DNA of 64,000 nt from Candidatus Omnitrophota bacterium (lineage in GTDB: Bacteria > Omnitrophota > Gorgyraeia > JABMRN01 > RBG-13-46-9). This document shows positions 3,162-61,020 of this stretch, piece by piece. The first letter of the stretch is position 1. Every line of letters starts with the position of its first letter. The translations under genes and the position numbers were made by a program. The stretch lies in the NCBI GenBank assembly GCA_016782425.1, contig JADHYN010000004.1, forward strand, positions 9,632-73,631, in the 5' to 3' direction. The notes beneath the pieces were generated by a model. That model was not told where the DNA came from. It ran no database searches and was given only the letters and a program-made list of their open reading frames with translations.

Positions 3162-5066
3162 TTAATCTACCAAGGAAAGTGTGCCAAAGAATATTTTTCC
3201 GGGCTGGCTTGTCGAATCGATCGACCAGGTAAGCTTCTTCGTCTTGTTATTTGCATCCCTGTCATGAATGGAAATCGAAAATCCCGTGTCTTCGCCCTTT
3301 ACGGGCCGGAATCCGTTAATCTCGTCAAACGGAATAGCCATCTCTACGGTATATCCGCCTTTTACGAACCGTACTGCGTATCTGATATTTTCCGGTTCCT
3401 TATTTCTGTATCCCCACGCCCAGATTCGCGAGGTTTCGCCCGGACCGTATGGCGCAACGGCAAACTGGTAATCATAAGCATTTTTGTCAAAGTAATAGCC
3501 GTTTTTATTGACGTCGAAAAATACTTCTACGCAGTCATCCAGATAAATTTTGCCGTTTATCTCGGTACACACTAGTTCGTTATCGCTTACCTTCCCCGCT
3601 ATGTATAAATTTTCCTCATCCCAGCCCAAATAAAATGTGCCGCTTGCGTCAGAATCATCCTTCACATAACCATGGGTTATTTCGACGTTTTTGTTATTCT
3701 TGGTAGTCAGAGTAACCAAAGATGCGCCGTTCCATTCCGATAAATCCCCGTCGATTTTTATTTGCCTCTTTAGTTTCTTTACTTTAACCGAATCATGCGG
3801 ATTACCGGCAAGATAAACTGACTTAGAGGGCTTATACTGCCTCCCGGATTCAAAACCTGCTTTCCTCATGCCGACCTTCACGTACTTATTCTGCATGAAA
3901 TATTTCCAGATAAGGCCGCTGCGGTAGTTTTCTATCATTAAAAGCGTAAGCCCCTTGTCGATCGATATATAGTAACTAGAGACCCAGTTCTCTCCTATAT
4001 TAAAAGCGTCGACGAGGCCATACTTTTTGACGGCCCTGGGGTTTTTCTCATACATCATTCTGTATTCTTTCACGGAAATTTCCGGGGTTAGCGGTATTGA
4101 GCCGCCGACAACGTAAGGCGCAACCGTTCCGTCGTCTATATTCTTTCCCGGTTTTGCGCCGAAAGCCTTATAGCCGCGCGGCGACAAAGATGCGCTAAGC
4201 CCCCAGAATCCCATTTTGTAAGTTTGGTGTTTGTCGGCGTTATCCCTGCAGTATTGCCTGTTCGCCTTAATGGCGACAATCGCATTCTGCCAATAATCGG
4301 CGTATTTATCGTGCTTATCCACGAGGTCCAGCCATGCCAACGGAAATAGATACTGGAAGAGCCCTCCGTCAGATGCGTAGATCAATTCGTAATCGCCGTA
4401 TTTAGAAACAGGCCTTAAAAACGAATCCCAGCAATCTGCGGGAATTGGGTGTGTGGGTGAACCCATGGCCAGAATATAAGAGAGTATCCCTTCTGAAAAC
4501 ACATCTATGCGGGCGAAAAATCCCCTTTCGGGTTTCCAGGCCATTTGCAGAACATTCTCACCGTCTAAAAACCACTGCCAGTCTATTTTTTTGAAGATTT
4601 CATCCGCCAATTTTTCAACTTCTGTTCCTTTGAAATATTCGCCGATGGTTATAACACCTGCCAGGAATAATCCCGTGTCGATTGAGCTTACTTCGCTGGC
4701 CCACATACGCTGGCCTGTATTTTTATTGAAGTAATGATAGGTAAATCCGTGAAATGTCTCGATTTTCCTGAAGGATTTTAAGGCTGTTAACGCCCTCTCG
4801 TACCCCTCTTCCCCCGTAATCCAGCCCCTCTCTATGCCGATCGGAAGGGCCGAAAGCATGAACCCGGCTGCGGCATTGCTGGCAGGCGAACTTCTCTCGC
4901 TCGTATTGGAGGTAAAACCAGTTTTGGGGTTGGTCTCGTTCCAAAAATAGTCAAAGGCTTCTTTTTGAACTTTATCAAGAAATTTTTCGTCGGCTTGAGC
5001 CCCGTTCTCGAAATAAAAAAAACCGACTAAAAAGGCGGTTAAAATTACAAGCACTTTAACAATCAT
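3162..5066 (-). CDS. secreted glucoamylase-like / GH144-type (DUF3131-like) glycoside hydrolase with C-terminal CBM9-like carbohydrate-binding domain
   Basis: Signal peptide. The N-terminal half carries FDYFWNETNPKTGF..ASNAAAGFMLSALPIGIERGWI, typical of the putative beta-glucan hydrolase family. The C-terminal ~190 aa (DGDLSEWN...DDCVEVFFD...W) resembles CBM9. Confidence 0.55.
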   Translation of the reverse strand: MIVKVLVILTAFLVGFFYFENGAQADEKFLDKVQKEAFDYFWNETNPKTGFTSNTSERSSPASNAAAGFMLSALPIGIERGWITGEEGYERALTALKSFRKIETFHGFTYHYFNKNTGQRMWASEVSSIDTGLFLAGVITIGEYFKGTEVEKLADEIFKKIDWQWFLDGENVLQMAWKPERGFFARIDVFSEGILSYILAMGSPTHPIPADCWDSFLRPVSKYGDYELIYASDGGLFQYLFPLAWLDLVDKHDKYADYWQNAIVAIKANRQYCRDNADKHQTYKMGFWGLSASLSPRGYKAFGAKPGKNIDDGTVAPYVVGGSIPLTPEISVKEYRMMYEKNPRAVKKYGLVDAFNIGENWVSSYYISIDKGLTLLMIENYRSGLIWKYFMQNKYVKVGMRKAGFESGRQYKPSKSVYLAGNPHDSVKVKKLKRQIKIDGDLSEWNGASLVTLTTKNNKNVEITHGYVKDDSDASGTFYLGWDEENLYIAGKVSDNELVCTEINGKIYLDDCVEVFFDVNKNGYYFDKNAYDYQFAVAPYGPGETSRIWAWGYRNKEPENIRYAVRFVKGGYTVEMAIPFDEINGFRPVKGEDTGFSISIHDRDANNKTKKLTWSIDSTSQPGKIFFGTLSLVD

Positions 5067-5596
5067 TTCCTGTCTTTGATAATGTCGTCTCTCGATCTAA
5101 ATTGAGCGATTTTATCCATGAGTTCCTCGGCCGCTTTGTTAATCTTTTTGTCACCGCGCTTCAAGACCGGCCGGGCAACCTCTTCCGTAAATGATTCGGT
5201 GGGCGATGGCGCCTTGAGTCCGTCAGAAACTTCCTGCAATTCGAGGGTGGTAAATCCATGCCCCAGTAATTCGGATAGCTTTCTTTCCAAATATATGACG
5301 TAGCTTCGGTCATTTATTATCTGGTCCTGCAAATTTTCTATGAGTTTGATTTTAAGGCCTTCGATCCTTTGGAGGGCCATGCCCGAGGGATTCTCATTGT
5401 ATAATGTAACTTCCTTATTTAATTCTTCGGCGGTCTCTTTTTCTCTATCGCTTAAATATTTCCATTGGTTGTAAAATTCCTTTTGCCTGTACTGCATCTC
5501 TTTCACGAATTTCCGCGTGCCTTCCTGGGGCTCTGCCGGATTTGTCATTTTTAAACAAATTATCAGCGCAATCAGTATAATAAAAATTCTTTTCAT
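5063..5596 (-). CDS. secreted coiled-coil hypothetical protein
   Basis: 177-aa ORF with a signal peptide and a charged helical sequence. It overlaps the downstream gene by 4 nt. Confidence 0.4.
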   Translation of the reverse strand: MKRIFIILIALIICLKMTNPAEPQEGTRKFVKEMQYRQKEFYNQWKYLSDREKETAEELNKEVTLYNENPSGMALQRIEGLKIKLIENLQDQIINDRSYVIYLERKLSELLGHGFTTLELQEVSDGLKAPSPTESFTEEVARPVLKRGDKKINKAAEELMDKIAQFRSRDDIIKDRK

Positions 5597-12651: not shown

Positions 12652-14202
12652 CTATTCTTCTTTTTCTCCGAACACCTCGGCTGTGAATATATAAATATCG
12701 CATTCGCCCTTTTTCCAGGCATCGGGTGACATACCTGCCTTGTCACCGCATAGCGAATTCATGAACTGCTCGCGGTTCCAGCCTGCTTCGGTAGCAACCT
12801 GCGGCAGATAAACGCCGCTGGTAAAACCTCTTCTCACGATAACTCCGTGCTTTCCCATTTCTATCACGTCAGGGTTATCGATTTTCTTAAGCGGAGATAG
12901 TGCTGAAATTTCAATGTCTATATCATCCATCTCGTTTAGTGTAACCTGCGGAAATCGCGGATCGCCGGTTGCCGCTTCCACCGCCATATCACGCACTGTC
13001 AGATAAAATGGGCCACGGCCTACGATGTTTCCGATGCAGCCTCGTAGCTGGCCGTGCTTGTGGAGCGTCACAAATCCGCCCATCTCAGCCAATAAGACAG
13101 GATCCGTTTCTTCAACCGGCAGGCGTTTTCTGTTTTTCAGGTAATGCATGATCGAATCCCGTGCCAGTTTCAGCATCTTTTTTCTTTGTACTTCGTTCAA
13201 CATATCATTATCTCCTTTTTCTGACTTTGGCATTTGGCGTTTCGGGCCTAGTTTTGATTTTTTCCGCCCGAGGCGGATCCGCCTTTGGCGGAGATTTTTT
13301 CCGCCCGAGGCGGAGATATTTGATTTAATTATGGCGGCACTTAAATACCCCACTACCCTCCTTTTATCCCAGGTAGTATCTCCTGAATTGGCGTACTTGA
13401 GGATTTCTATCTTGTCGGCTCCGAGTTTTTTGGTCGCGATCATGGTCGCGTACACTGCTCCGTAACCGCACATTAACTGGTGACCTGAAAGCGAACTTTC
13501 GGTGTATAATTTATCGGCATCAAATTCTTCTATTACGGAAATCGTTTTTCTATCCATGCTGTTCGCTTTCTTATACGGCAGGTAGTGCGACATGTCTGTG
13601 CTCGCAACAAGCAAAAAACTTTCTTTGTCTTTTAAGGTGTCGTATAAAGCTTTGCCCAGTATTTTGCAATTCTCCAAATTCTGATCGCCGATTGCGACGA
13701 GAACAATCTTGAAATCGTTTAAAACCGCCTGCAGAAACGGTATTTCCATTTCGATGGAATTTTCTCCCAGAAAAGCGAGGGGTTTGTCATAAATCTTCGG
13801 ATGCGCGGCGATCAGTTGTTCTGTGATTTTTTTATCGATTTCAACAACGCCAAGCGGCGTTTCAATGCCGTCTACATCAAGAACCGCTATGCCGTCATAA
13901 TTCCTTGTGTGGCTGAAGCCTACTACGACAACGGTCTTTATAGTTTGTTTACTGATAGCTTTAAAGCCATAGGCTGCAACGGGTCCCGAATAAACAAAAC
14001 CGGCATGCGGGGATATTATCGCGACAATTTCGCCGTCGATTGAGGGGGGTGTAGCTTTGGTAAGATATGATTGCAGTTCGGCGGTCAAACTTCTTTTTGA
14101 AGCAGAGTACCACCTTCCTGCCAGATCCGCCTTCTTCACTTCGCCCATCGCCGTTCCAGCAAGGAGTGTTGAGGTGATAAGACCGATTAAGATTTTTTTC
14201 AT
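12652..14202 (-). CDS. Memo-like (AmmeMemoRadiSam system protein B) fused in frame to AMMECR1 (protein A), with N-terminal signal peptide
   Basis: Residues after the signal peptide (AGRWYSASKRSL.., SPHAGFVYSG, STDMSHY) are Memo-like. The C-terminal 183 aa (MLKLARDSI..GCIG..GDPRFP..GVYLPQV) are AMMECR1. The track ORF start at 14271 reads through the tRNA, so the real start is taken as ATG 14202. An internal SD plus ATG sits at 13203. Confidence 0.8.
   Translation of the reverse strand: MKKILIGLITSTLLAGTAMGEVKKADLAGRWYSASKRSLTAELQSYLTKATPPSIDGEIVAIISPHAGFVYSGPVAAYGFKAISKQTIKTVVVVGFSHTRNYDGIAVLDVDGIETPLGVVEIDKKITEQLIAAHPKIYDKPLAFLGENSIEMEIPFLQAVLNDFKIVLVAIGDQNLENCKILGKALYDTLKDKESFLLVASTDMSHYLPYKKANSMDRKTISVIEEFDADKLYTESSLSGHQLMCGYGAVYATMIATKKLGADKIEILKYANSGDTTWDKRRVVGYLSAAIIKSNISASGGKNLRQRRIRLGRKKSKLGPKRQMPKSEKGDNDMLNEVQRKKMLKLARDSIMHYLKNRKRLPVEETDPVLLAEMGGFVTLHKHGQLRGCIGNIVGRGPFYLTVRDMAVEAATGDPRFPQVTLNEMDDIDIEISALSPLKKIDNPDVIEMGKHGVIVRRGFTSGVYLPQVATEAGWNREQFMNSLCGDKAGMSPDAWKKGECDIYIFTAEVFGEKEE
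13252..13327. repeat. GC-rich double/triple palindrome element (CCGCC-CGA-GGCGG / CCGCC-TTT-GGCGG / CCGCC-CGA-GGCGG), copy 1
   Basis: ttttgattttttCCGCCcgaGGCGGatCCGCCtttGGCGGagattttttCCGCCcgaGGCGGagatatttgattt. The 40-nt core recurs at 58484-58528. It lies in frame in the Memo-AMMECR1 linker. Confidence 0.85.
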
Positions 14203-14210
14203 AACTTGAT

Positions 14211-14286
14211 TGGTGGACTGGAGCGGAGTCGAACCGCCGACCTCCTCGTTGCGAACGAGGCGTTCTCCCAACTGAACTACCAGCCC
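14211..14286 (-). tRNA. tRNA-Ala (anticodon CGC), CCA encoded
   Basis: The 76 nt fold by hand as a 7-bp acceptor with G3:U70, a D arm GTTC/GAAC, anticodon stem CCTCG/CGAGG with loop TTCGCAA, and a T arm GGCGG-TTCGACT-CCGCT, ending in ACCA. Confidence 0.95.
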
Positions 14287-19511: not shown

Positions 19512-19910
19512 CTACCTCTTCTGGGTTGTCGCGATATTTATTTTCTGTATTCCCTCCGCCCTGCACATATCCCACACCTCCACAACCCTGCCTAAAGATG
19601 CTTTTCTGTCGGCCTTTATCAAAATCTGTTTTGATTCCTGTGCGGCGATCTTAAGACGTGAAGAGAGTTCTTCCGAGTCAATCTGTCTTTCGCTAATATA
19701 TATCGCGCTCTCGTCTGTTATGACGATTATTAAATTTTCTCTCTGGATAACCTCGCTCGTAAGCGCCTTCGGAAGATTTATTTTTATGCCTGGCTGAAAT
19801 ATAAAACTGGAAGTCAGCATGAAAAAAATGAGAAGGAGAAATACGACGTCGATAAGTGGGGCTATGTCGAGCCGGCCCTTCTCTAAAAATACTCTTCTCT
19901 TAAACTTCAT
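19512..19910 (-). CDS. exbD: ExbD/TolR biopolymer transport protein
   Basis: DIAPLIDVVFLLLIFFMLTSSF TM motif and a periplasmic domain. Confidence 0.85.
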   Translation of the reverse strand: MKFKRRVFLEKGRLDIAPLIDVVFLLLIFFMLTSSFIFQPGIKINLPKALTSEVIQRENLIIVITDESAIYISERQIDSEELSSRLKIAAQESKQILIKADRKASLGRVVEVWDMCRAEGIQKINIATTQKR

Positions 19911-20533
19911 GCCGTCTCTCTCTGGTCGGATAATATATTTACAAGCTCTGTTGCGCTCTTCTCCATATCTAACACGAAATTGTCAACCCTGCTAACTAAA
20001 TAGTTATAAGCAACATAAGTTGGAATCGCAATAGAAAGCCCTGCAACAGTCGTTATGAGCGCTTCCCAGATTCCGCCTGCAAGGTCGCCGGGATTCACCG
20101 GGACCATACTCATCGCCTTCTCTTCTATAACCTGGAAGGCCTTCAGCATTCCCACGACCGTTCCGAGAAGACCCAAAAGCGGTGTAATGTGCGCTATCGT
20201 GGCTAGAACGCCCAGATTTTTTTCCAGAAGCGGTACCTCGTGAATACCTGCGTTTTCTATCGCCTCTTTTATGTCGTGGCGGTGCCTGTCATATTTCATG
20301 ATTCCAGACTTTAGTATGCGCGCGATCGGCCCCCTGGTTATATTGCACATGTCGAGGGCCTCCATGACTTTATTATTTTTAACCTTGGCTGATATCTCCT
20401 GCATGAACTTTTTTGTGTCGATTTTGGCATTCCTGAGATGCCACATTCTTTCCAGAAAAACCGCAAATGCCATTATCGAGCACAGTATGATTAACCCCAT
20501 TATGGGTCCGCCTTTGATTATAAATTCCCACAT
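19907..20533 (-). CDS. exbB: MotA/TolQ/ExbB proton channel
   Basis: Three TM helices and GLLGTVVGMLKAF. Start moved to ATG 20533 (MWEFIIKGG) behind GAAGGAGG. The track extension to 20560 is encoded by the repeat element. Confidence 0.85.
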   Translation of the reverse strand: MWEFIIKGGPIMGLIILCSIMAFAVFLERMWHLRNAKIDTKKFMQEISAKVKNNKVMEALDMCNITRGPIARILKSGIMKYDRHRHDIKEAIENAGIHEVPLLEKNLGVLATIAHITPLLGLLGTVVGMLKAFQVIEEKAMSMVPVNPGDLAGGIWEALITTVAGLSIAIPTYVAYNYLVSRVDNFVLDMEKSATELVNILSDQRETA

Positions 20534-20827
20534 TTTTTCCTCCTTCAATGAGACCCACACTTATGAAAATCGAAGATTTTCGTAAGTGTGTCTTCCGTGA
20601 ATTTCTTCTGTGAATCCTGTTAGAAATATCTCATTTCTAACAGGGTGAAGGGTCGAATTGGACCCCCCCACCACTTTCTAAAATTACAATTTCTTGTTAC
20701 TAAAGGCTTTGTCTCTATTATGATGCACTATCACCACTTTTGTACATAGCATAGAAAGTGGTGGGGGGTAAATTCAGCCATATAACTTACGTCGCTTCGC
20801 TCCGTAAGTTATGGCTTCATTTACCTC
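20534..20827 (-). repeat. three-hairpin intergenic element, copy E1 (central module type B2, plus one extra hairpin)
   Basis: Fills the TPR-stop to exbB-start spacer. Hairpin A 20556-20590, extra hairpin 20616-20644, long hairpin B arms 20652-20680 / 20752-20779, hairpin C 20780-20813. The core is roughly nine-tenths identical (by eye) to 31326-31451. Confidence 0.85.
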
Positions 20828-23275
20828 CTATTCTTTCATTTTAAGCCATTCCAATCTTTCTCTGGCGTACTCGGATTCTTTTACTCTGCGCTTGGCTAAT
20901 CTTTCGTACACCTTTATTGCTTGATCCCATTTATGTACTGTCTCTAATAATGCGCCGCATTTAAGTTCTGCCCTCGCGGCCCAGAACGTGTTCCGCGGAT
21001 ACGCATAACTTACTTTTAAATATTCAATAACGGCCTCTTCCGTCTTATTGTTGAGTTCATAAGCCTCGGCTATGCCATACTGGATCTCGGCGTTGAAGTC
21101 AGTATCATCTCTTGTCTGGGCTTTTTTGAAATGCTCGATGGCTTTTGGAAAATCTTTCTTTTCCATGAAAATTCGGCCGATCTTTCTGTTGGCAGTCCTC
21201 ACAAACGGTGTATCCTTGTATTTATTTATAACTTGCTTAAATACATTTAATGCCTCGTCTGTTTTGCCCTCCTCAAAAAGGATATCCCCCGTCCTAGAAA
21301 TCGCCTCCTGGCTCCATTCGCTATCGGGGTAATTCTTGTAAAGCGTTCTAAATTCATCGATAGCCTGAAGCGGCTTTCCTTCTTCGTAAAGCGTCCAGCC
21401 GAGCCAGTAGAAAGCGTCATCTACAAAACTCGACTGCGGGTATTTAGAAATAACACGGTTAAAACGCTTCTTGGCATCCTGGAATTTGCCCTTGTTGTAT
21501 AAATATTCTCCGAACCATATGTTCACGCCGGCCGCAAGGGCGTCTTCTGGATATTTTTTTAAAATGATTTCGAATTCCTTAAGTGCGTCTTTTTCTTTAT
21601 GCATCCTGTAATAGCACCAGCCCAGTTGATAATGCGCGGTCTTCGTCAGTTCCGTATCGTCTTTTTTCTTTATAATTTCTTTAAAAATCGGGATCGCTTC
21701 GATATATTTGCTGGCGTTATAAAGTGAAAGTGCCTTCTGAAATTTTGCGCTTTTCGCAAGAGGGCTTTTTGGAATGGTTTTTATAATTTCGTCAAACTGG
21801 TCGGCCGCCAGATCAAAATTGCCCTTTTTGAAGTAGAGAACCCCTAGCTGATAATGCGCCTCATCCTTGAAGCGTGAATCCGGAAAATTTGCCAGTAAAT
21901 ACTGAAATGCGAGTATGCTGGAATCAATTCTATCCATCAGAAAAAGGAGTCTTCCTACTTCGTATTGGGCATAATCGGCCCAGATGCTTTCATGATATTT
22001 GGTCAATATAATATCGTATGTTTCAACTGATTTGTCGTATTGATTGAGTTTTTCATTGATCTCGGCTATTCTACAAAAAGCCCCGACAATGAGTTCGGCA
22101 TCATCGGAGACTTCAGTGACCTTTTGGAATTCCCCCATGGATTCTCTCAAGTTGCCTTTTTCCCTCAAAGACCACCCCAGGTTGTAATGAAACTCATCGA
22201 CCAGTTCGCCTGTCGGAAATCTGTTAATGGCGTCGCGATAAACGCTAGTGGCTTTTCCAAATTCTTTCTTTTTGTAATAAAGCTCACCGAGCCAGTAGAA
22301 AGCGTCGTCTGCCCATTGACCTTCTCCGAAATTTTCAATTATTCCAATGTAGCCTGACTCTGCCTCGCCAAGGTTGCCTAATTTCTCGTAGGATTGGGCT
22401 ATTCCAAATAGACTTGCCGCAATAAGATCAGGCTGGCGGGCGTTTTTATTACACTTTTCGAAAGCGTGGAGGGCATCGGTAAAATTTTCTAATTTGAAAT
22501 ACGCCTTCCCTTTCTTGTATATTGCCGAATTTTGCCAGTTTGCGCCTCCGGATATGGAAAGGGCTTCATCAAAATTCCTTATCGCATCCTTAAAATCTCC
22601 CAAGTAAAAACTTGACTCCGCCAGCATGTAATAGAGGTCGGCTCTCTTTTCCATAAGGGGGTATTTGCTTAAAAAATTGTATAGCCTGAGGCGCGCCTTG
22701 GCAAACTCCATCCTTTCGTAAAGTATCTCGCATATCTTGTACTCCGCTTTTACCGCCAGCCGATCCAGGGGAAATTTTACCAAGAAATTATCAAACTCTC
22801 CAAGGGCCCGGCCGTAGTCGCCGAGCTTGTAGTAGCACCACGCTATCGAATAATAACTGTACGACAGGAAAGATGAATCCTGAAAATCGTCTATGATTTT
22901 TTGATAGTTAACTATCGCTTTGTCGTAATCGCCAGATTTGAAATATACCTCTCCTGTCCAGTAAATCGCTTCATCCGCATGATCGATCGCCCGGGGGTCA
23001 TCGATTATCAGCTGGAATTCATACAACGCCTTCTTGAACTCCCCCCCTTCGTAAAAACACTTTCCCAAGAGAATGTATACGCCTTCTTTATGCGCTGAAT
23101 CCGGATATTTTTCCAGGAAAGTTTGGAGTCTCTGTGCGGCAAGGTCGTAAAATCCGTCGCTGAATGCCTTTTTGGCAAAAACCATCTCGTTTTGTTCCTG
23201 CTGGGCGTATAGGTGGTAATTAAGGGGGTATATTATAAAGATAACCGCAATGATAATATGATATATAGCTTTCAT
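20828..23275 (-). CDS. large secreted TPR-repeat protein (YbgF/CpoB-like repeats)
   Basis: 815 aa. Signal peptide, then more than 15 TPR-like units (A.YWLGE.YY..G.Y..A...F pattern). Confidence 0.8.
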   Translation of the reverse strand: MKAIYHIIIAVIFIIYPLNYHLYAQQEQNEMVFAKKAFSDGFYDLAAQRLQTFLEKYPDSAHKEGVYILLGKCFYEGGEFKKALYEFQLIIDDPRAIDHADEAIYWTGEVYFKSGDYDKAIVNYQKIIDDFQDSSFLSYSYYSIAWCYYKLGDYGRALGEFDNFLVKFPLDRLAVKAEYKICEILYERMEFAKARLRLYNFLSKYPLMEKRADLYYMLAESSFYLGDFKDAIRNFDEALSISGGANWQNSAIYKKGKAYFKLENFTDALHAFEKCNKNARQPDLIAASLFGIAQSYEKLGNLGEAESGYIGIIENFGEGQWADDAFYWLGELYYKKKEFGKATSVYRDAINRFPTGELVDEFHYNLGWSLREKGNLRESMGEFQKVTEVSDDAELIVGAFCRIAEINEKLNQYDKSVETYDIILTKYHESIWADYAQYEVGRLLFLMDRIDSSILAFQYLLANFPDSRFKDEAHYQLGVLYFKKGNFDLAADQFDEIIKTIPKSPLAKSAKFQKALSLYNASKYIEAIPIFKEIIKKKDDTELTKTAHYQLGWCYYRMHKEKDALKEFEIILKKYPEDALAAGVNIWFGEYLYNKGKFQDAKKRFNRVISKYPQSSFVDDAFYWLGWTLYEEGKPLQAIDEFRTLYKNYPDSEWSQEAISRTGDILFEEGKTDEALNVFKQVINKYKDTPFVRTANRKIGRIFMEKKDFPKAIEHFKKAQTRDDTDFNAEIQYGIAEAYELNNKTEEAVIEYLKVSYAYPRNTFWAARAELKCGALLETVHKWDQAIKVYERLAKRRVKESEYARERLEWLKMKE

Positions 23276-31242: not shown

Positions 31243-31524
31243 CTTGCCTCCTTCGATGAGCATTGGACTTATGAAAATCTCTGATTTTTATAAGTCCATC
31301 TTCTATGAATTTCTCCTCCGAATGTGCGAATTGAACCCCCCACCACTTTCTAAAATTACAATTTCTTGTCATTAAAGGCTTTGTCTCTACCATAATACAT
31401 TATCACCATTTTTGTACATAGCATAGAAAGTGGTGGGGGGTAAATTCAGCCATACGACTTGCGTCTCTTGTAACCTGGAAATAAAAATTCCTAAACTATA
31501 TATAAACGCAAGTCGTGGCTTCAT
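31243..31524 (-). repeat. three-hairpin intergenic element, copy E2 (central module type B2)
   Basis: Fills the spacer from the MerR-like stop to the smc start. Hairpin A 31264-31298, hairpin B arms 31326-31352 / 31424-31451, hairpin C arms 31451-31463 / 31507-31518. Confidence 0.85.
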
Positions 31525-39215: not shown

Positions 39216-40184
39216 ATGATTGAGGACTGGCGTTATAGAAGTATGCATTGGAGGGATATAGCTTATAAATACAGAGTCAGTAAAGGATGGTTTTATATCT
39301 TAAGAAAGAGGTTCCTAGAAAAAGGTTATGAGGGCTTAAGGGATAAAGTCCACAATAACTCTAACCGGCCTCACAGGATTAACTGGGAACAAAGACTTAG
39401 GATATTATCCTATGTTTATGATAATCCGACTCACGGACCCCAGAGGATAGCTTATGAGCTAGAGCCTCGGCTCTCCCCTAAAGGCGTATGGAATACATTG
39501 AAACGCGAAGATCTTAATACCAGGCGCAAAAGACGCCTCTGGGCTCATTACCAGGGAAAGCCTGTCTTGACTCAGAAGGAAAAGCACCTCATCCTTGCCA
39601 GGGATAGGCATGTAGAATCTTATGAGCCTGGGGAACTTGTAAGCATAGATACATTGGCCGTCTCCGTCAAGGAATTGGGTAAAATGTGGCAATATACGGC
39701 ATGTGATACGTATTCCAGCTACGGGTGGGCTTGGCTGTATCGCAATAAAACTGCGAATAATGCCGTGGACTTTTTTATGAACCATGTAAGGGGCACGGTG
39801 CCGACACGCAAGATAAAAAGAATCTTAACGGACCAGGGCACCGAATTCTACAACATAAAAAGTACGGAACGCGATAGCCCTTTTACAAATGCTTTAAAGG
39901 CTCACGGCATAAAGCATACGGTTACTAAAGTTGCTCATCCCTGGACCAATGGTTATGTCGAAAGGCTTAATCAAACCATATGGCAGGAGTTCTATCTATG
40001 CAGGTTAGAGAATCCTTATGCTTCGATAGAAGCGCTTAATAAAGAGTTATATGCTTTTATGCGGTATTATAACTTTTACAGAAAACATACTGGTTATAAG
40101 CTTAAAATGGCAGGATTTGAGTATCCCGGCCATGCGTTCTTTGATGTGAAAGAATCGAGTAACATTGTCGAGATAAAGTACTAA
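39216..40184 (+). mobile_element. IS481-family-like DDE transposase gene (rve integrase core); element ends not defined
   Basis: HTH region, then the DDE core: SIDT.., TDQGTEF, HPWTNGYVERLNQTIWQEF. One of only three plus-strand genes. I could not find terminal inverted repeats. Confidence 0.7.
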
Positions 40185-44504: not shown

Positions 44505-44647
44505 TTATTTCACCTCCTTCCGTCAATTCATTTTCTTAGAACTTCGACTTTGAACAGTCGAATTGAACCCTTGACATCTTTGATGTCAAGGGTAAGTTCA
44601 GCCATATGATTTATGGCAACTTCGGTTGCCATAAATCATGGCTTCAG
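44505..44647 (-). repeat. three-hairpin intergenic element, copy E3 (minimal, central module type B1)
   Basis: Fills the nadX-stop to 81-aa-start spacer. Hairpin B arms 44559-44577 / 44583-44601 (TTGACAT-ctttg-ATGTCAA), hairpin C 44602-44641, short A-like hairpin 44543-44562. Confidence 0.8.
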
Positions 44648-45460
44648 TTACGTTCCTATTTTAACGCCCTCTACGATGCCCTTCAGTGTTGCGATGGCAG
44701 AAAGGGCTGCTAGTTTGCTTGTTTTCGGATTTTTCTCAAACGGGACATTTTCGGTTCTCGTCGTAATCCTGCCGAAATCGCCGACTATTTCTATCTCATG
44801 CGTGTTTTTTGTGAATTTAGGGGAGGTGACGATCTCTACCGTTGTATTTTTCGCCCCTATGCCTGCAAGGGATAAAAGCGATGCAACGTTTACATTCTTG
44901 GGAAAGCCCTTCACTGCTTCGAGGGCATTTCCTTTAAATATAACCTTCTCGTCTCTTATGGAATTTATGTCTATGTTTTTCTCCTCGAGATAAGGCGCGC
45001 CTTCAAGGCCTTTAGGCGGTTTTTTTGTAGTTAGCGTAACTTTGTCTATTTTGGAAATTTTTGCGCTTTTTAGGGCATCTATCCCGCATATAGCACCACT
45101 CGGGAAATACACCTTGATGTTTTTGATTCTTGCTTCTTCCAGGAGGTTTTCGGATTCGATCAGCCCTCCGACGCTCATCACCATGATGTCTTTTGACTTT
45201 TCGACGGCTTTTTTCACCACTTCCCGAGAAATACGGCTACTTGCGGCTTCTATTATTAATTCGGATTTGCCAAAAAGGGCTTCTTCCGAATCAGTTGCAA
45301 CATCCTTTTTCACGAGGCGCGATAGGCTCTCGCTCTTCTCTTTATCTATATCGTATAGCGCTACAAGTTCTATATTGTTTTTTAAAAGCGTTGCGCAGGC
45401 AGAGGCTATCTCACTGCCTATCGCGCCGCAACCTATAATGCCAACTTTTAGCTTCTTCAT
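44648..45460 (-). CDS. nadX: L-aspartate dehydrogenase
   Basis: KVGIIGCGAIGSEIA Rossmann N-terminus. The C-terminal NPKTSKLAALSAIATL is typical of the Asp-DH family. Adjacent to nadA. Confidence 0.7.
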   Translation of the reverse strand: MKKLKVGIIGCGAIGSEIASACATLLKNNIELVALYDIDKEKSESLSRLVKKDVATDSEEALFGKSELIIEAASSRISREVVKKAVEKSKDIMVMSVGGLIESENLLEEARIKNIKVYFPSGAICGIDALKSAKISKIDKVTLTTKKPPKGLEGAPYLEEKNIDINSIRDEKVIFKGNALEAVKGFPKNVNVASLLSLAGIGAKNTTVEIVTSPKFTKNTHEIEIVGDFGRITTRTENVPFEKNPKTSKLAALSAIATLKGIVEGVKIGT

Positions 45461-50479: not shown

Positions 50480-50890
50480 AATTTATCCCCCCTTCAATGA
50501 GCACGCAACTTATGGAACGAAATGAACATAAGTTGCTGTGCGAATTGAATCCTTGACATTTTGTTCCGAAACAGAATTTATTATTTTTTCAATAGTCTTC
50601 TTTCTTGTATTTCCATTTTTAAATTGTCTTTCCCGCATAAAAGCCTGTGCCCGCGAATTGAACTTTTCATAATAGATTAATTCGATAGGTCGTCTATGCT
50701 TCGTATACTTAACATGTCCACTTGAATGTTCGGCGAACCGTTCTTTTAAGCGATACGTATGGCCGTAATACTTTGTGCCATCGTTACATTTCAAGATATA
50801 AAAATAATAAGTTGTTTTCATAAGCAAAATGTCAAGGATCAAATTTGCGCTTATGATTTATGTCGCATAAATGCGGCTTAAATCATGCGC
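50480..50890 (-). mobile_element. three-hairpin intergenic element, copy E4, carrying a GIY-YIG ORF inside central hairpin B1 (candidate autonomous copy)
   Basis: Hairpin A 50502-50540, hairpin B arms 50541-50559 / 50829-50849 enclosing the ORF, hairpin C 50847-50890 (overlaps the last codons of dapF). 50491-50559 differs from 60834-60902 at 2 of 69 positions. Confidence 0.7.
50510..50821 (-). CDS. small stand-alone GIY-YIG nuclease-domain protein (YhbQ/UPF0213-like)
   Basis: MKTTYYFYILKCNDGTKYYGHTYRLKERFAEHSSG..ELIYYEKFNSRAQAFMRERQFKN carries the GIY/YIG, Arg and Glu/Asn motifs. Start set at ATG 50821; the track begins at an upstream TTG. Confidence 0.8.
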   Translation of the reverse strand: MKTTYYFYILKCNDGTKYYGHTYRLKERFAEHSSGHVKYTKHRRPIELIYYEKFNSRAQAFMRERQFKNGNTRKKTIEKIINSVSEQNVKDSIRTATYVHFVP

Positions 50891-60824: not shown

Positions 60825-60991
60825 ATCTTCCTCCCTTCAATGAGCACGCAACTTATGGAACGAAGTGAACATAAGTTGCTGTGCGAATTGAACCCTTGAC
60901 ATTTTCGGAAATCTTCATATGGGAAATGTCAAGGGTATAATTCGACCACATAGTTTACGTCTGCCACCGGGCAGTCGTAAACTATGGCCTC
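60825..60991 (-). repeat. three-hairpin intergenic element, copy E5 (ORF-deleted derivative of E4; 5' leader of the arg operon)
   Basis: Hairpin A 60845-60883, hairpin B arms 60884-60902 / 60927-60945, hairpin C 60949-60986. It retains ATG AAG plus the last 19 codons of the GIY-YIG ORF in frame. Confidence 0.85.
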
Positions 60992-61020
60992 AGTATAGAC
61001 AAAAAAACCCACCCTGTCAA
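60992..61020 (-). promoter_or_regulatory. sigma70-type promoter of the arg operon, abutting element E5
   Basis: Minus strand reads TTGACA-17 nt (GGGTGGGTTTTTTTGTC)-TATACT. Confidence 0.55.

Follow-up and report, generated by a model that had tools for sequence, protein, structure and literature searches.

The closest described counterparts of the DNA element considered here are MITEs (miniature transposable elements with inverted repeats), bacterial interspersed mosaic elements (BIMEs) and BOX elements, and the criteria for the first and the definitions and effects of the other two are set out in PMC3049150. The element lies in a 294-nt spacer (positions 20534-20827) that separates two minus-strand genes, a tetratricopeptide repeat (TPR) gene and exbB, in a metagenome-assembled genome of Candidatus Omnitrophota, of which we analyzed a stretch of 64,000 nt, hereafter the window. 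In our view the spacer is most probably an insertion specific to this lineage, made up of nested palindromes of repetitive, non-coding DNA of a mobile type. Its outer layer is a scaffold, seen among all the sequence compared only in DNA of this strain, that consists of a hairpin (C), a central stem, a linker, a second hairpin (A) and a terminal CTCATTGAAGGAGG. The central slot of this scaffold holds a second palindromic unit, which in copy 1 (the copy before exbB) and copy 2 is a module designated B2. The 17-nt arms of B2 would be the inverted repeats that terminate the members of a MITE-like family; this family also occurs in Patescibacteria, with target-site duplications of 3-4 nt around its copies.

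B2 resembles MITEs such as Correia of Neisseria and Nezha of cyanobacteria in being ~105 nt long and non-coding, with perfect terminal inverted repeats around an A+T-rich interior, in folding into a long hairpin, and in occurring as dispersed copies inserted between genes or inside operons (criteria in PMC3049150); most members of the B2 family also carry short flanking direct repeats. It departs from them in that the family's duplications read TCAA/TTGA or TGA rather than TA, that no parent insertion sequence was found for B2, that the B2 copies of the window are nested in another repeat and show no clean duplication, and that the arms span two phyla. In the literature searched we found no sequence similarity to any described MITE or repeat family, and nothing relevant on the motif strings or on MITEs in these phyla.

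The scaffold, for its part, recalls the BIME and repetitive extragenic palindromic (REP) sequences of enterobacteria and the BOX elements of Streptococcus pneumoniae, as it is a mosaic in which the units (hairpin C, a B1 or B2 center, an extra hairpin and hairpin A) vary by copy and which sits between genes of the same direction; in copy 3 a stop codon falls in the first bases of the element, as reported for BOX (PMC3049150). Unlike those repeats, it has different sequences, appears to lack the GTAG-plus-palindrome signature of REP and regularly ends in a Shine-Dalgarno sequence used by the downstream gene, and its copy number is known for ~84 kb only. No gene for a REP-associated tyrosine transposase (RAYT) was present among the precomputed Pfam annotations, which cover most of the window. 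Riboswitches and attenuators offer a further comparison, as the element has a similar position, preceded by a gene and followed by a transport operon, and its sequence allows two helices that exclude each other, but it is without the conserved alternative helix, terminator, Rfam match or orthologous conservation of such devices.

The inserted spacer upstream of exbB

The spacer between the TPR gene and exbB is 10-13 nt long in five related contigs, in all of which an 815-aa gene directly precedes exbB, compared with 294 nt in the window. For four of these contigs the identity of ExbB to that of the window is 89-94%, and the fifth, L155, was retrieved via P0006, the 93%-identical ExbB encoded by L154. 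The spacers read TAG-AGAGGAGAAAACA-ATG in L154, TAG-GAGGCATATT-ATG in L156 and TAA-GGAGGAAGCAAA-ATG in L157, and measure 13 nt in L155 and 10 nt in L166 by gene coordinates only. The short spacers of all five relatives identify the element before exbB as an insertion, and the comparison places the added ~280 nt just after the native ribosome-binding site, such that the site now used lies at the end of the element. A second site behaves in the same way: the spacer between a MerR-type gene and smc, which holds copy 2, is 8 nt long in one relative, L163, and 26 nt in another, L164, compared with ~280 nt in the window, and judged by these lengths copy 2 is likewise an insertion. The five empty TPR-exbB and two empty MerR-smc sites attest presence and absence of the element as a composite rather than of B2 by itself. 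Some Omnitrophota SMC homologues (P0128, P0129, P0221, P0223 and P0239) are ~1750 aa long and carry intein and LAGLIDADG domains (PF14890, PF14528), neither of which occurs in the SMC of the window.

The genes on either side agree with what the sequence-only reading had proposed, namely that the element lies between a TPR gene and exbB-exbD-tonB, as confirmed by the open reading frames (ORFs) and Pfam assignments; all the motifs which it had listed are also in place on the minus strand. The TPR-repeat protein gene (20828-23275, minus strand; 815 aa, from the ORF list and Pfam TPR families) ends in the stop codon TAG at 20830-20828, and its product has equal-length orthologues in L154-L157 and L166. 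The exbB gene (19907-20533, minus strand; 208 aa) begins with an ATG at 20533 and is followed by exbD and tonB, the three products being assigned by PF01618, PF02472 and PF03544. Between them the inserted composite element of ~280 nt runs from TAAATGAAGCC to CTCATTGA (20545-20823, minus strand), giving the junction TAG-GAGG-(TAAATGAAGCC ... CTCATTGA)-AGGAGG-AAAAA-ATG. The GAGG right after the stop codon (20824-20827, minus strand), when compared with the spacers of the relatives, is probably the orphaned native Shine-Dalgarno sequence of exbB; if the A-G before it is included, it reads AGGAGG and is directly repeated at 20539-20544. The Shine-Dalgarno sequence that exbB now has, GGAGG at 20539-20543, stands 5 nt before the ATG, and the right boundary of the element, whether drawn to include this GGAGG or not, is uncertain.

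Read along the minus strand, the element opens with hairpin C (20776-20816), in which a 4-bp helix and, beyond a 2-nt bulge, a 10-bp helix lead to an 11-nt loop, with the 10-bp arms at 20782-20791 and 20803-20812 in an inverted-repeat scan. It continues through GCTGAATTTACCCC (20765-20778) into the MITE-like palindrome B2 (20664-20768, ~105 nt), whose two 17-nt arms form a perfect inverted repeat on the minus strand (CCCCCCACCACTTTCTA/TAGAAAGTGGTGGGGGG, at 20664-20680 and 20752-20768) with 71 nt between them. The G+C content of the B2 loop is 31% by direct count compared with 44% for the window, and the loop contains an internal 9-nt copy of the B2 3' arm, AAAGTGGTG (20732-20740, minus strand), that can pair with 9 nt of the 5' arm. 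On the 3' side of the central slot lies the scaffold block GGGTCCAATTCGACCC (20650-20665, minus strand), which with GCTGAATTTA (20769-20778) makes up the base of the central stem. Relative to copy 2, the scaffold alignment shows a 36-nt insertion (20611-20646) that holds a perfect 12-bp hairpin (20616-20627 and 20633-20644); the sequence-only reading had called this hairpin unique to its copy, and it was found in copy 1 alone across all sequence compared. Hairpin A (20556-20590; arms 20556-20571 and 20575-20590) has 16 bp at 94%, with one C:A mismatch on the sense strand in copy 1, and shares with hairpin C the core ACTTAYG...CRTAAGT. The conserved 3' end of the scaffold, CTCATTGAAGGAGG (20539-20552), is unpaired in the predicted fold. 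Chance does not account for these repeats, as evidenced by four occurrences of the 17-mer in the window at up to three mismatches, where 0.09 are expected.

Scaffold copies in the strain and B2-type palindromes in metagenomes

Five copies of the scaffold were found in ~84 kb of the strain by a self-similarity search of the window together with motif searches, all of them in the window and on the gene strand; a further 20 kb of the strain held no additional full copy. The family scaffold to which the sequence-only reading had referred is real, with four copies besides the one before exbB. Copy 2 (31244-31523), with a B2 center, separates a 68-aa MerR-type gene from smc; copy 3 (44513-44650), whose B1 center is the short palindrome ACCCTTGACATC/GATGTCAAGGGT, precedes a small zinc-ribbon-like gene; copy 4 (60830-60992), with a B1 center and a 19-nt loop, is upstream of argC; and copy 5 (50480-50882), which precedes dapA (DHDPS), consists of a degenerate hairpin C, B1-type arms around an ORF with a GIY-YIG domain, hairpin A and a Shine-Dalgarno sequence. 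All four are on the minus strand. The short B1 palindrome of copies 3 and 4 reads CCCTTGACAT.../...ATGTCAAGGG. Alignment gives the order of the scaffold as (TAA)ATGAAGCCAT, hairpin C, ATGGCTGAAYTTA, central palindrome, TTCAATTCG, linker, hairpin A and CTCATTGAAGGAGG, and the alignment and inverted-repeat maps of the five copies show a mosaic of palindromic units whose composition varies. The sequence-only reading had assigned a different central module to the copy before exbB: B2 does differ from the B1 centers, but it is not confined to copy 1, as copy 2 has a B2 (31335-31441) that is 90% identical over 144 nt, with 18-nt arms that are 100% complementary, as are the 17-nt arms of copy 1.

Every scaffold copy fills a stop-to-start or promoter-to-start gap. 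The 5' end lies a few bases from the upstream stop codon or, in one copy, from a promoter, and the terminal Shine-Dalgarno sequence precedes the start of the next gene by 4-8 nt. The upstream gene of copy 3 has its stop codon within the conserved first bases of the element. The downstream genes (exbB, smc, argC, dapA and the small zinc-ribbon-like gene) are unrelated. In the four copies in which it comprises 4 bp, a 2-nt bulge and at least 10 bp, hairpin C retains all 14 pairs (100% paired), with seven of the 14 altered on both sides; this full pairing despite two-sided changes indicates that the palindromes are maintained at the RNA or DNA level. A consensus-like promoter, TTGACA-17 nt-TATACT (60992-61020, minus strand), abuts the 5' end of copy 4, and hairpin C would there form the 5' end of the argC transcript.

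Outside the strain the scaffold was absent from ~68 kb of related Omnitrophota DNA (64 kb searched directly, plus L166) and from ~250 kb of other metagenome loci, its hairpin-C block had no match in a scan of viral contigs, and the 15-mer TGGCTGAAYTTACCC gave only single chance matches, in unrelated taxa, among genome contigs. The public short-read contig L002 ends inside the element, a break that is expected where a repeat occurs. In the same strain, L158 carries a stand-alone B1-like hairpin, GAATTC-TTGACATC-AGA-GATGTCAA-GAATTC (2949-2980), at the start of an aconitase gene and outside any scaffold.

The B2 palindrome is distributed more widely. In metagenomes, 31 loci matched a pattern of two 12-nt arm cores spaced 55-85 nt apart, compared with ~0.2 estimated by chance, and with near-matches in those loci counted there are 29 unique modules (the two window copies and 27 others) across which arms of the form CCCNG-CACCACTTTCTA recur. 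The outer five bases of the arms co-vary (CCCCG/CGGGG, CCCAG/CTGGG, TCCCC/GGGGA and others) and are complementary in 22 of the 29, and the modules share an A+T-rich loop of ~70 nt. Identical 4-nt flanks were observed for 16 of the 29 modules (TCAA in eight, TTGA in six, TAAA in one and TTTA in one) and 3-nt TCA/TGA flanks for three more, all of them TCCCC-armed, giving 19 modules with direct repeats of 3-4 nt. The hosts identified for three of the source contigs are Patescibacteria, some of them Kerfeldbacteria. Loops from the metagenomes are alike among themselves and unlike that of the window, varying by subfamily while the arms are kept; a profile of the Patescibacteria loops gave no match to the window loop at any reported threshold, and some shuffled loops scored. 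The features common to the window and Patescibacteria modules are accordingly the arms, the spacing and the A+T richness only. Miniature elements usually share only the ends that are recognized by the transposase.

Nearly all of the modules other than the three with TCCCC arms are intergenic, in either orientation, and copies adjoin unrelated genes. Palindromes with TCCCC-CACCAC arms occur at 2026-2129 in L124, between folP-like and yebC-like genes, at 4141-4247 in L146, between rplK and rplA, and at 13038-13147 in L147, close to the contig end, where a type IV pilus assembly-like gene has its stop codon immediately before the module. The L124 and L146 modules fill the stop-to-start junction exactly, with TGA duplicated and the ATG rebuilt from the last A of the element, and from this arrangement both sites look like former ATGA stop/start overlaps. 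Many TTGA-flanked modules (L127, L133, L145 and others) have a right flank that abuts TTGACA, with a TATAAT-like hexamer 17 nt further on. Either -35 boxes are frequent landing sites of these elements or such a box is restored by the duplication of TTGA.

In L149, a contig with prepilin peptidase and pseudopilin genes, three pilin-like genes each have a variant of this palindrome, with arms CCAGCACCACTTTTCA and TGAAAAGTGGTGCTGG, around their 5' ends (2415-2520, ~3365-3475 and 5465-5567). Its left arm lies in the 5' untranslated region, its loop contains the ATG and an N/K-rich leader, and its right arm codes for (V/L)KSGAG, immediately ahead of the cleavage motif G|FTLIE. A compensatory change from GCACC/GGTGC to GCGCC/GGCGC is seen in one copy, and the TTTA/TTTA flanks of the copy at 5469 reconstruct an older leader, MTGLTSRRG|FTLIEV. 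Either the repeat rebuilt the pilin leaders or its arms derive from a hairpin at the pilin 5' end.

Copy 5 differs from the others in its coding center. The GIY-YIG domain ORF (50510-50842, minus strand; PF01541, E = 4e-12) is located in the central palindrome, where a 49-nt inverted repeat with 78% identity (50540-50588 and 50800-50848) that includes the B1 arms CCTTGACATTTT and AAAATGTCAAGG encloses most of the ORF. From the 3' arm onwards copies 4 and 5 are 96% identical, and the 19-nt loop of copy 4 retains two sequences, ATGAA and TTTCCGA, similar to those at either end of the ORF; this resemblance suggests that the B1 hairpins may be deletion derivatives of a center of the copy 5 type. 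The ORF has no Shine-Dalgarno sequence, reads into hairpin A and is not called in the public record, and an exact look-up of its protein returned no record. The missing ribosome-binding site and the uncalled gene imply that the ORF may be decaying. Only one other GIY-YIG ORF was encountered in the ~430 kb examined; it is in L149, with arms of two CACCACTTT modules on either side of it, and with two cases the association of GIY-YIG genes with these palindromes is suggestive. Compared with free-standing GIY-YIG homing endonuclease genes, copy 5 is alike in having a GIY-YIG domain ORF, here inside a palindromic center, and unlike in that the ORF encodes the catalytic domain only (~80 aa) and has no recognizable translation signals; its link to mobility is a putative one.

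Folding of the element and competing explanations

The 300-nt region folds at -111 kcal/mol with z = -9.7 on the sense strand, and the antisense strand matches it at z = -9.9; equal folding of both strands is expected of DNA palindromes and not of a strand-specific RNA device. The long B2 stem is present in both the minimum free energy and the centroid structures, in both of which the exbB Shine-Dalgarno sequence is free, and the AUG is also unpaired in the predicted fold. When the module and its flanks were folded with the long stem formed, copies 1 and 2 gave -48.9 and -48.8 kcal/mol, respectively, compared with -18.3 and -15.2 kcal/mol when the 3' arm was barred from pairing. Pairing of the 5' arm within the loop had a probability of 4e-11 for copy 1 and 1e-15 for copy 2. 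The alternative helix of copy 1, at 9 bp, is thus ~30 kcal/mol weaker than the 17-bp stem. In copy 2 the corresponding segment reads AAAAATGGTG, which introduces a C:A mismatch in the middle of the helix and shortens the arm copy to 5 nt, and the alternative hairpin was not predicted there, the nascent transcript included. Across 23 other unique modules with these arms the arm copy in the loop never exceeds 5 nt. From these comparisons the 9-nt internal segment may be read as a decaying internal duplicate of one arm.

These results bear directly on the suggestion of the sequence-only reading that the element may be an RNA switch or attenuator, in which the 5' arm would alternate between the distal arm and AAAGTGGTG and so control read-through into exbB-exbD-tonB. 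Both pairings that it described can be drawn, one with the 17-nt distal arm across a 71-nt gap and the other with the 9-nt internal segment; an arm copy of at least 9 nt in the loop arose in only 42 of 20000 shuffles, and in copy 1, though in copy 1 only, the nascent transcript is predicted to fold into the 9-bp hairpin until the 3' arm has been made. The folding comparison set beforehand to decide the matter nevertheless found an internal helix that is far weaker than the long stem and unconserved in the B2 of copy 2, and the equilibrium probability is vanishingly small. The sense strand of the element has no hairpin with a U-tract and no terminator- or promoter-like site above background, the element is missing upstream of exbB in the five relatives, and the same module precedes smc, an unrelated gene. 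Rfam returned noise only, at the gathering threshold for the window and in E-value mode for the region; a tRNA-Ala (CGC) at 14211-14286 (minus strand), which overlaps the start of a listed ORF (12652-14271), is the sole Rfam/ARAGORN match in the window. We consider a switch extremely improbable. A less specific role in RNA, as a domesticated cis-acting element whose hairpins, within the polycistronic mRNA, might protect the TPR message from 3' exonucleases, offer a double-strand-specific RNase a cleavage site and so uncouple the two cistrons, or govern how exbB is translated by means of the ribosome-binding site that the element carries, fits the invariable sense orientation, the exact position between stop codon or promoter and start codon with a correct Shine-Dalgarno distance, the compensatory changes that preserve hairpin C, and the very stable folds that leave the Shine-Dalgarno sequence free, and effects of this kind are reported for BIME, enterobacterial repetitive intergenic consensus (ERIC) and BOX repeats (PMC3049150). 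However, both strands fold equally well, the C:A mismatches of hairpin A on the sense strand would be G:U pairs on the antisense strand, the downstream genes are unrelated and the relatives manage without the element, so that domestication appears unlikely.

The palindromes might instead act in DNA as protein-binding sites, either operators or sites for a nucleoid protein or gyrase as proposed for REP and BIME, with a dimeric protein bound to the 17-bp arms. Their perfection and their symmetry on both strands would suit such a function, as would an arm sequence kept across two phyla while the loops differ, but the variable flanking repeats (TCAA, TTGA, TAAA, TTTA and TCA/TGA) point to insertions, copies adjoin unrelated genes in both orientations, orthologous sites are without the element and no candidate binding protein was identified; we hold binding sites to be a highly unlikely explanation. 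A different origin is raised by copy 5, namely that the central stem is the inverted repeat of a GIY-YIG cassette, with B1 hairpins as its deletion derivatives and B2 as a foreign replacement palindrome, all spread by nuclease-induced repair and not by DDE transposition. The inverted repeat around most of the ORF, the similarity of the 3' part of copy 4 with the ORF-end remnants in its loop, and the GIY-YIG ORF between two module arms in L149 all speak for this origin. Against it, a single scaffold copy bears the ORF, which lacks a Shine-Dalgarno sequence, runs into hairpin A and is publicly uncalled, and 28 other B2-like loci have no GIY-YIG gene nearby; moreover, short GIY-YIG proteins of ~100 aa are not known to have a DNA-recognition domain. 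The balance makes a GIY-YIG footprint distinctly unlikely. We would assign a similarly low likelihood to its extension, in which the scaffold slot represents an undescribed type of small bacterial mobile element, a GIY-YIG gene within long inverted repeats, with B1 hairpins as its miniatures and the CACCACTTTCTA-armed palindromes sharing the nuclease-and-repair route. If true, that route would account for insertion exactly at stop codons, at stop/start overlaps and at TTGA sites.

Proposed nested mobile-type DNA within operons

The best-supported reading remains the insertion of nested, non-autonomous palindromes of a mobile type, an ordinary form of selfish DNA, here in a phylum that is little studied. 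On this reading the long stem would exist because the two ends of a transposon-like unit share one sequence, and would not have been selected as an RNA switch. The units would be mobilized in trans by some enzyme, and the element would be co-transcribed within the operon mRNA, where its insertion would be tolerated because the stop codon is left intact and an unpaired ribosome-binding site is supplied. The scaffold, a second repeat restricted to the strain or species, would by its design, with stop codons on the 5' side and a Shine-Dalgarno sequence that is unpaired on the 3' side, suit the interior of an operon, and any effects on the mRNA, such as stabilization or RNase III cleavage of a 17-23-bp duplex, would be by-products.

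Several observations weigh against this interpretation. No cognate transposase was found, and the search for a parent element, in the form of widely spaced arm pairs in the examined loci, yielded only singletons at chance number. The flanks of the transposase at 39216-40184 have no ends resembling the repeat modules; no other transposase was seen in the window than this rve-type one (plus strand; 313-322 aa), which is of the IS481/IS3 type and has the domains HTH_32 and rve (DDE integrase). The B2 copies of the window lack a clean target duplication, the flanks of copy 2 being TGAA/TAAA (three of four matching) and those of copy 1 matching at one of four positions. The ends of the scaffold are not sharp and its own duplication is ambiguous: AGGAGG flanks copy 1, copy 2 has an offset AGGCAA, and a clear equivalent is missing from the others. 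The scaffold is represented by only five copies in ~84 kb of one strain. As the search pattern itself set the 12-nt arm cores of the metagenome copies, the conservation of these cores is no independent evidence. Covariation in the hairpins is also compatible with a host function for which a structure in RNA or single-stranded DNA is selected.

To a specialist, a structured repeat within an operon would come as no surprise; what is mildly new is that the arms are common to two phyla, that the elements land precisely at gene junctions and that there may be a link to GIY-YIG genes. For exbB-exbD-tonB there is no sign of a dedicated regulatory device, and in annotation such long structured spacers in Omnitrophota and Patescibacteria should not be called riboswitches. 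Repeats of this kind break short-read assemblies, as in contig L002. The B2-type modules represent an undescribed palindromic repeat family common to two uncultured phyla, here nested in a scaffold with a stop codon and ribosome-binding signals of its own.

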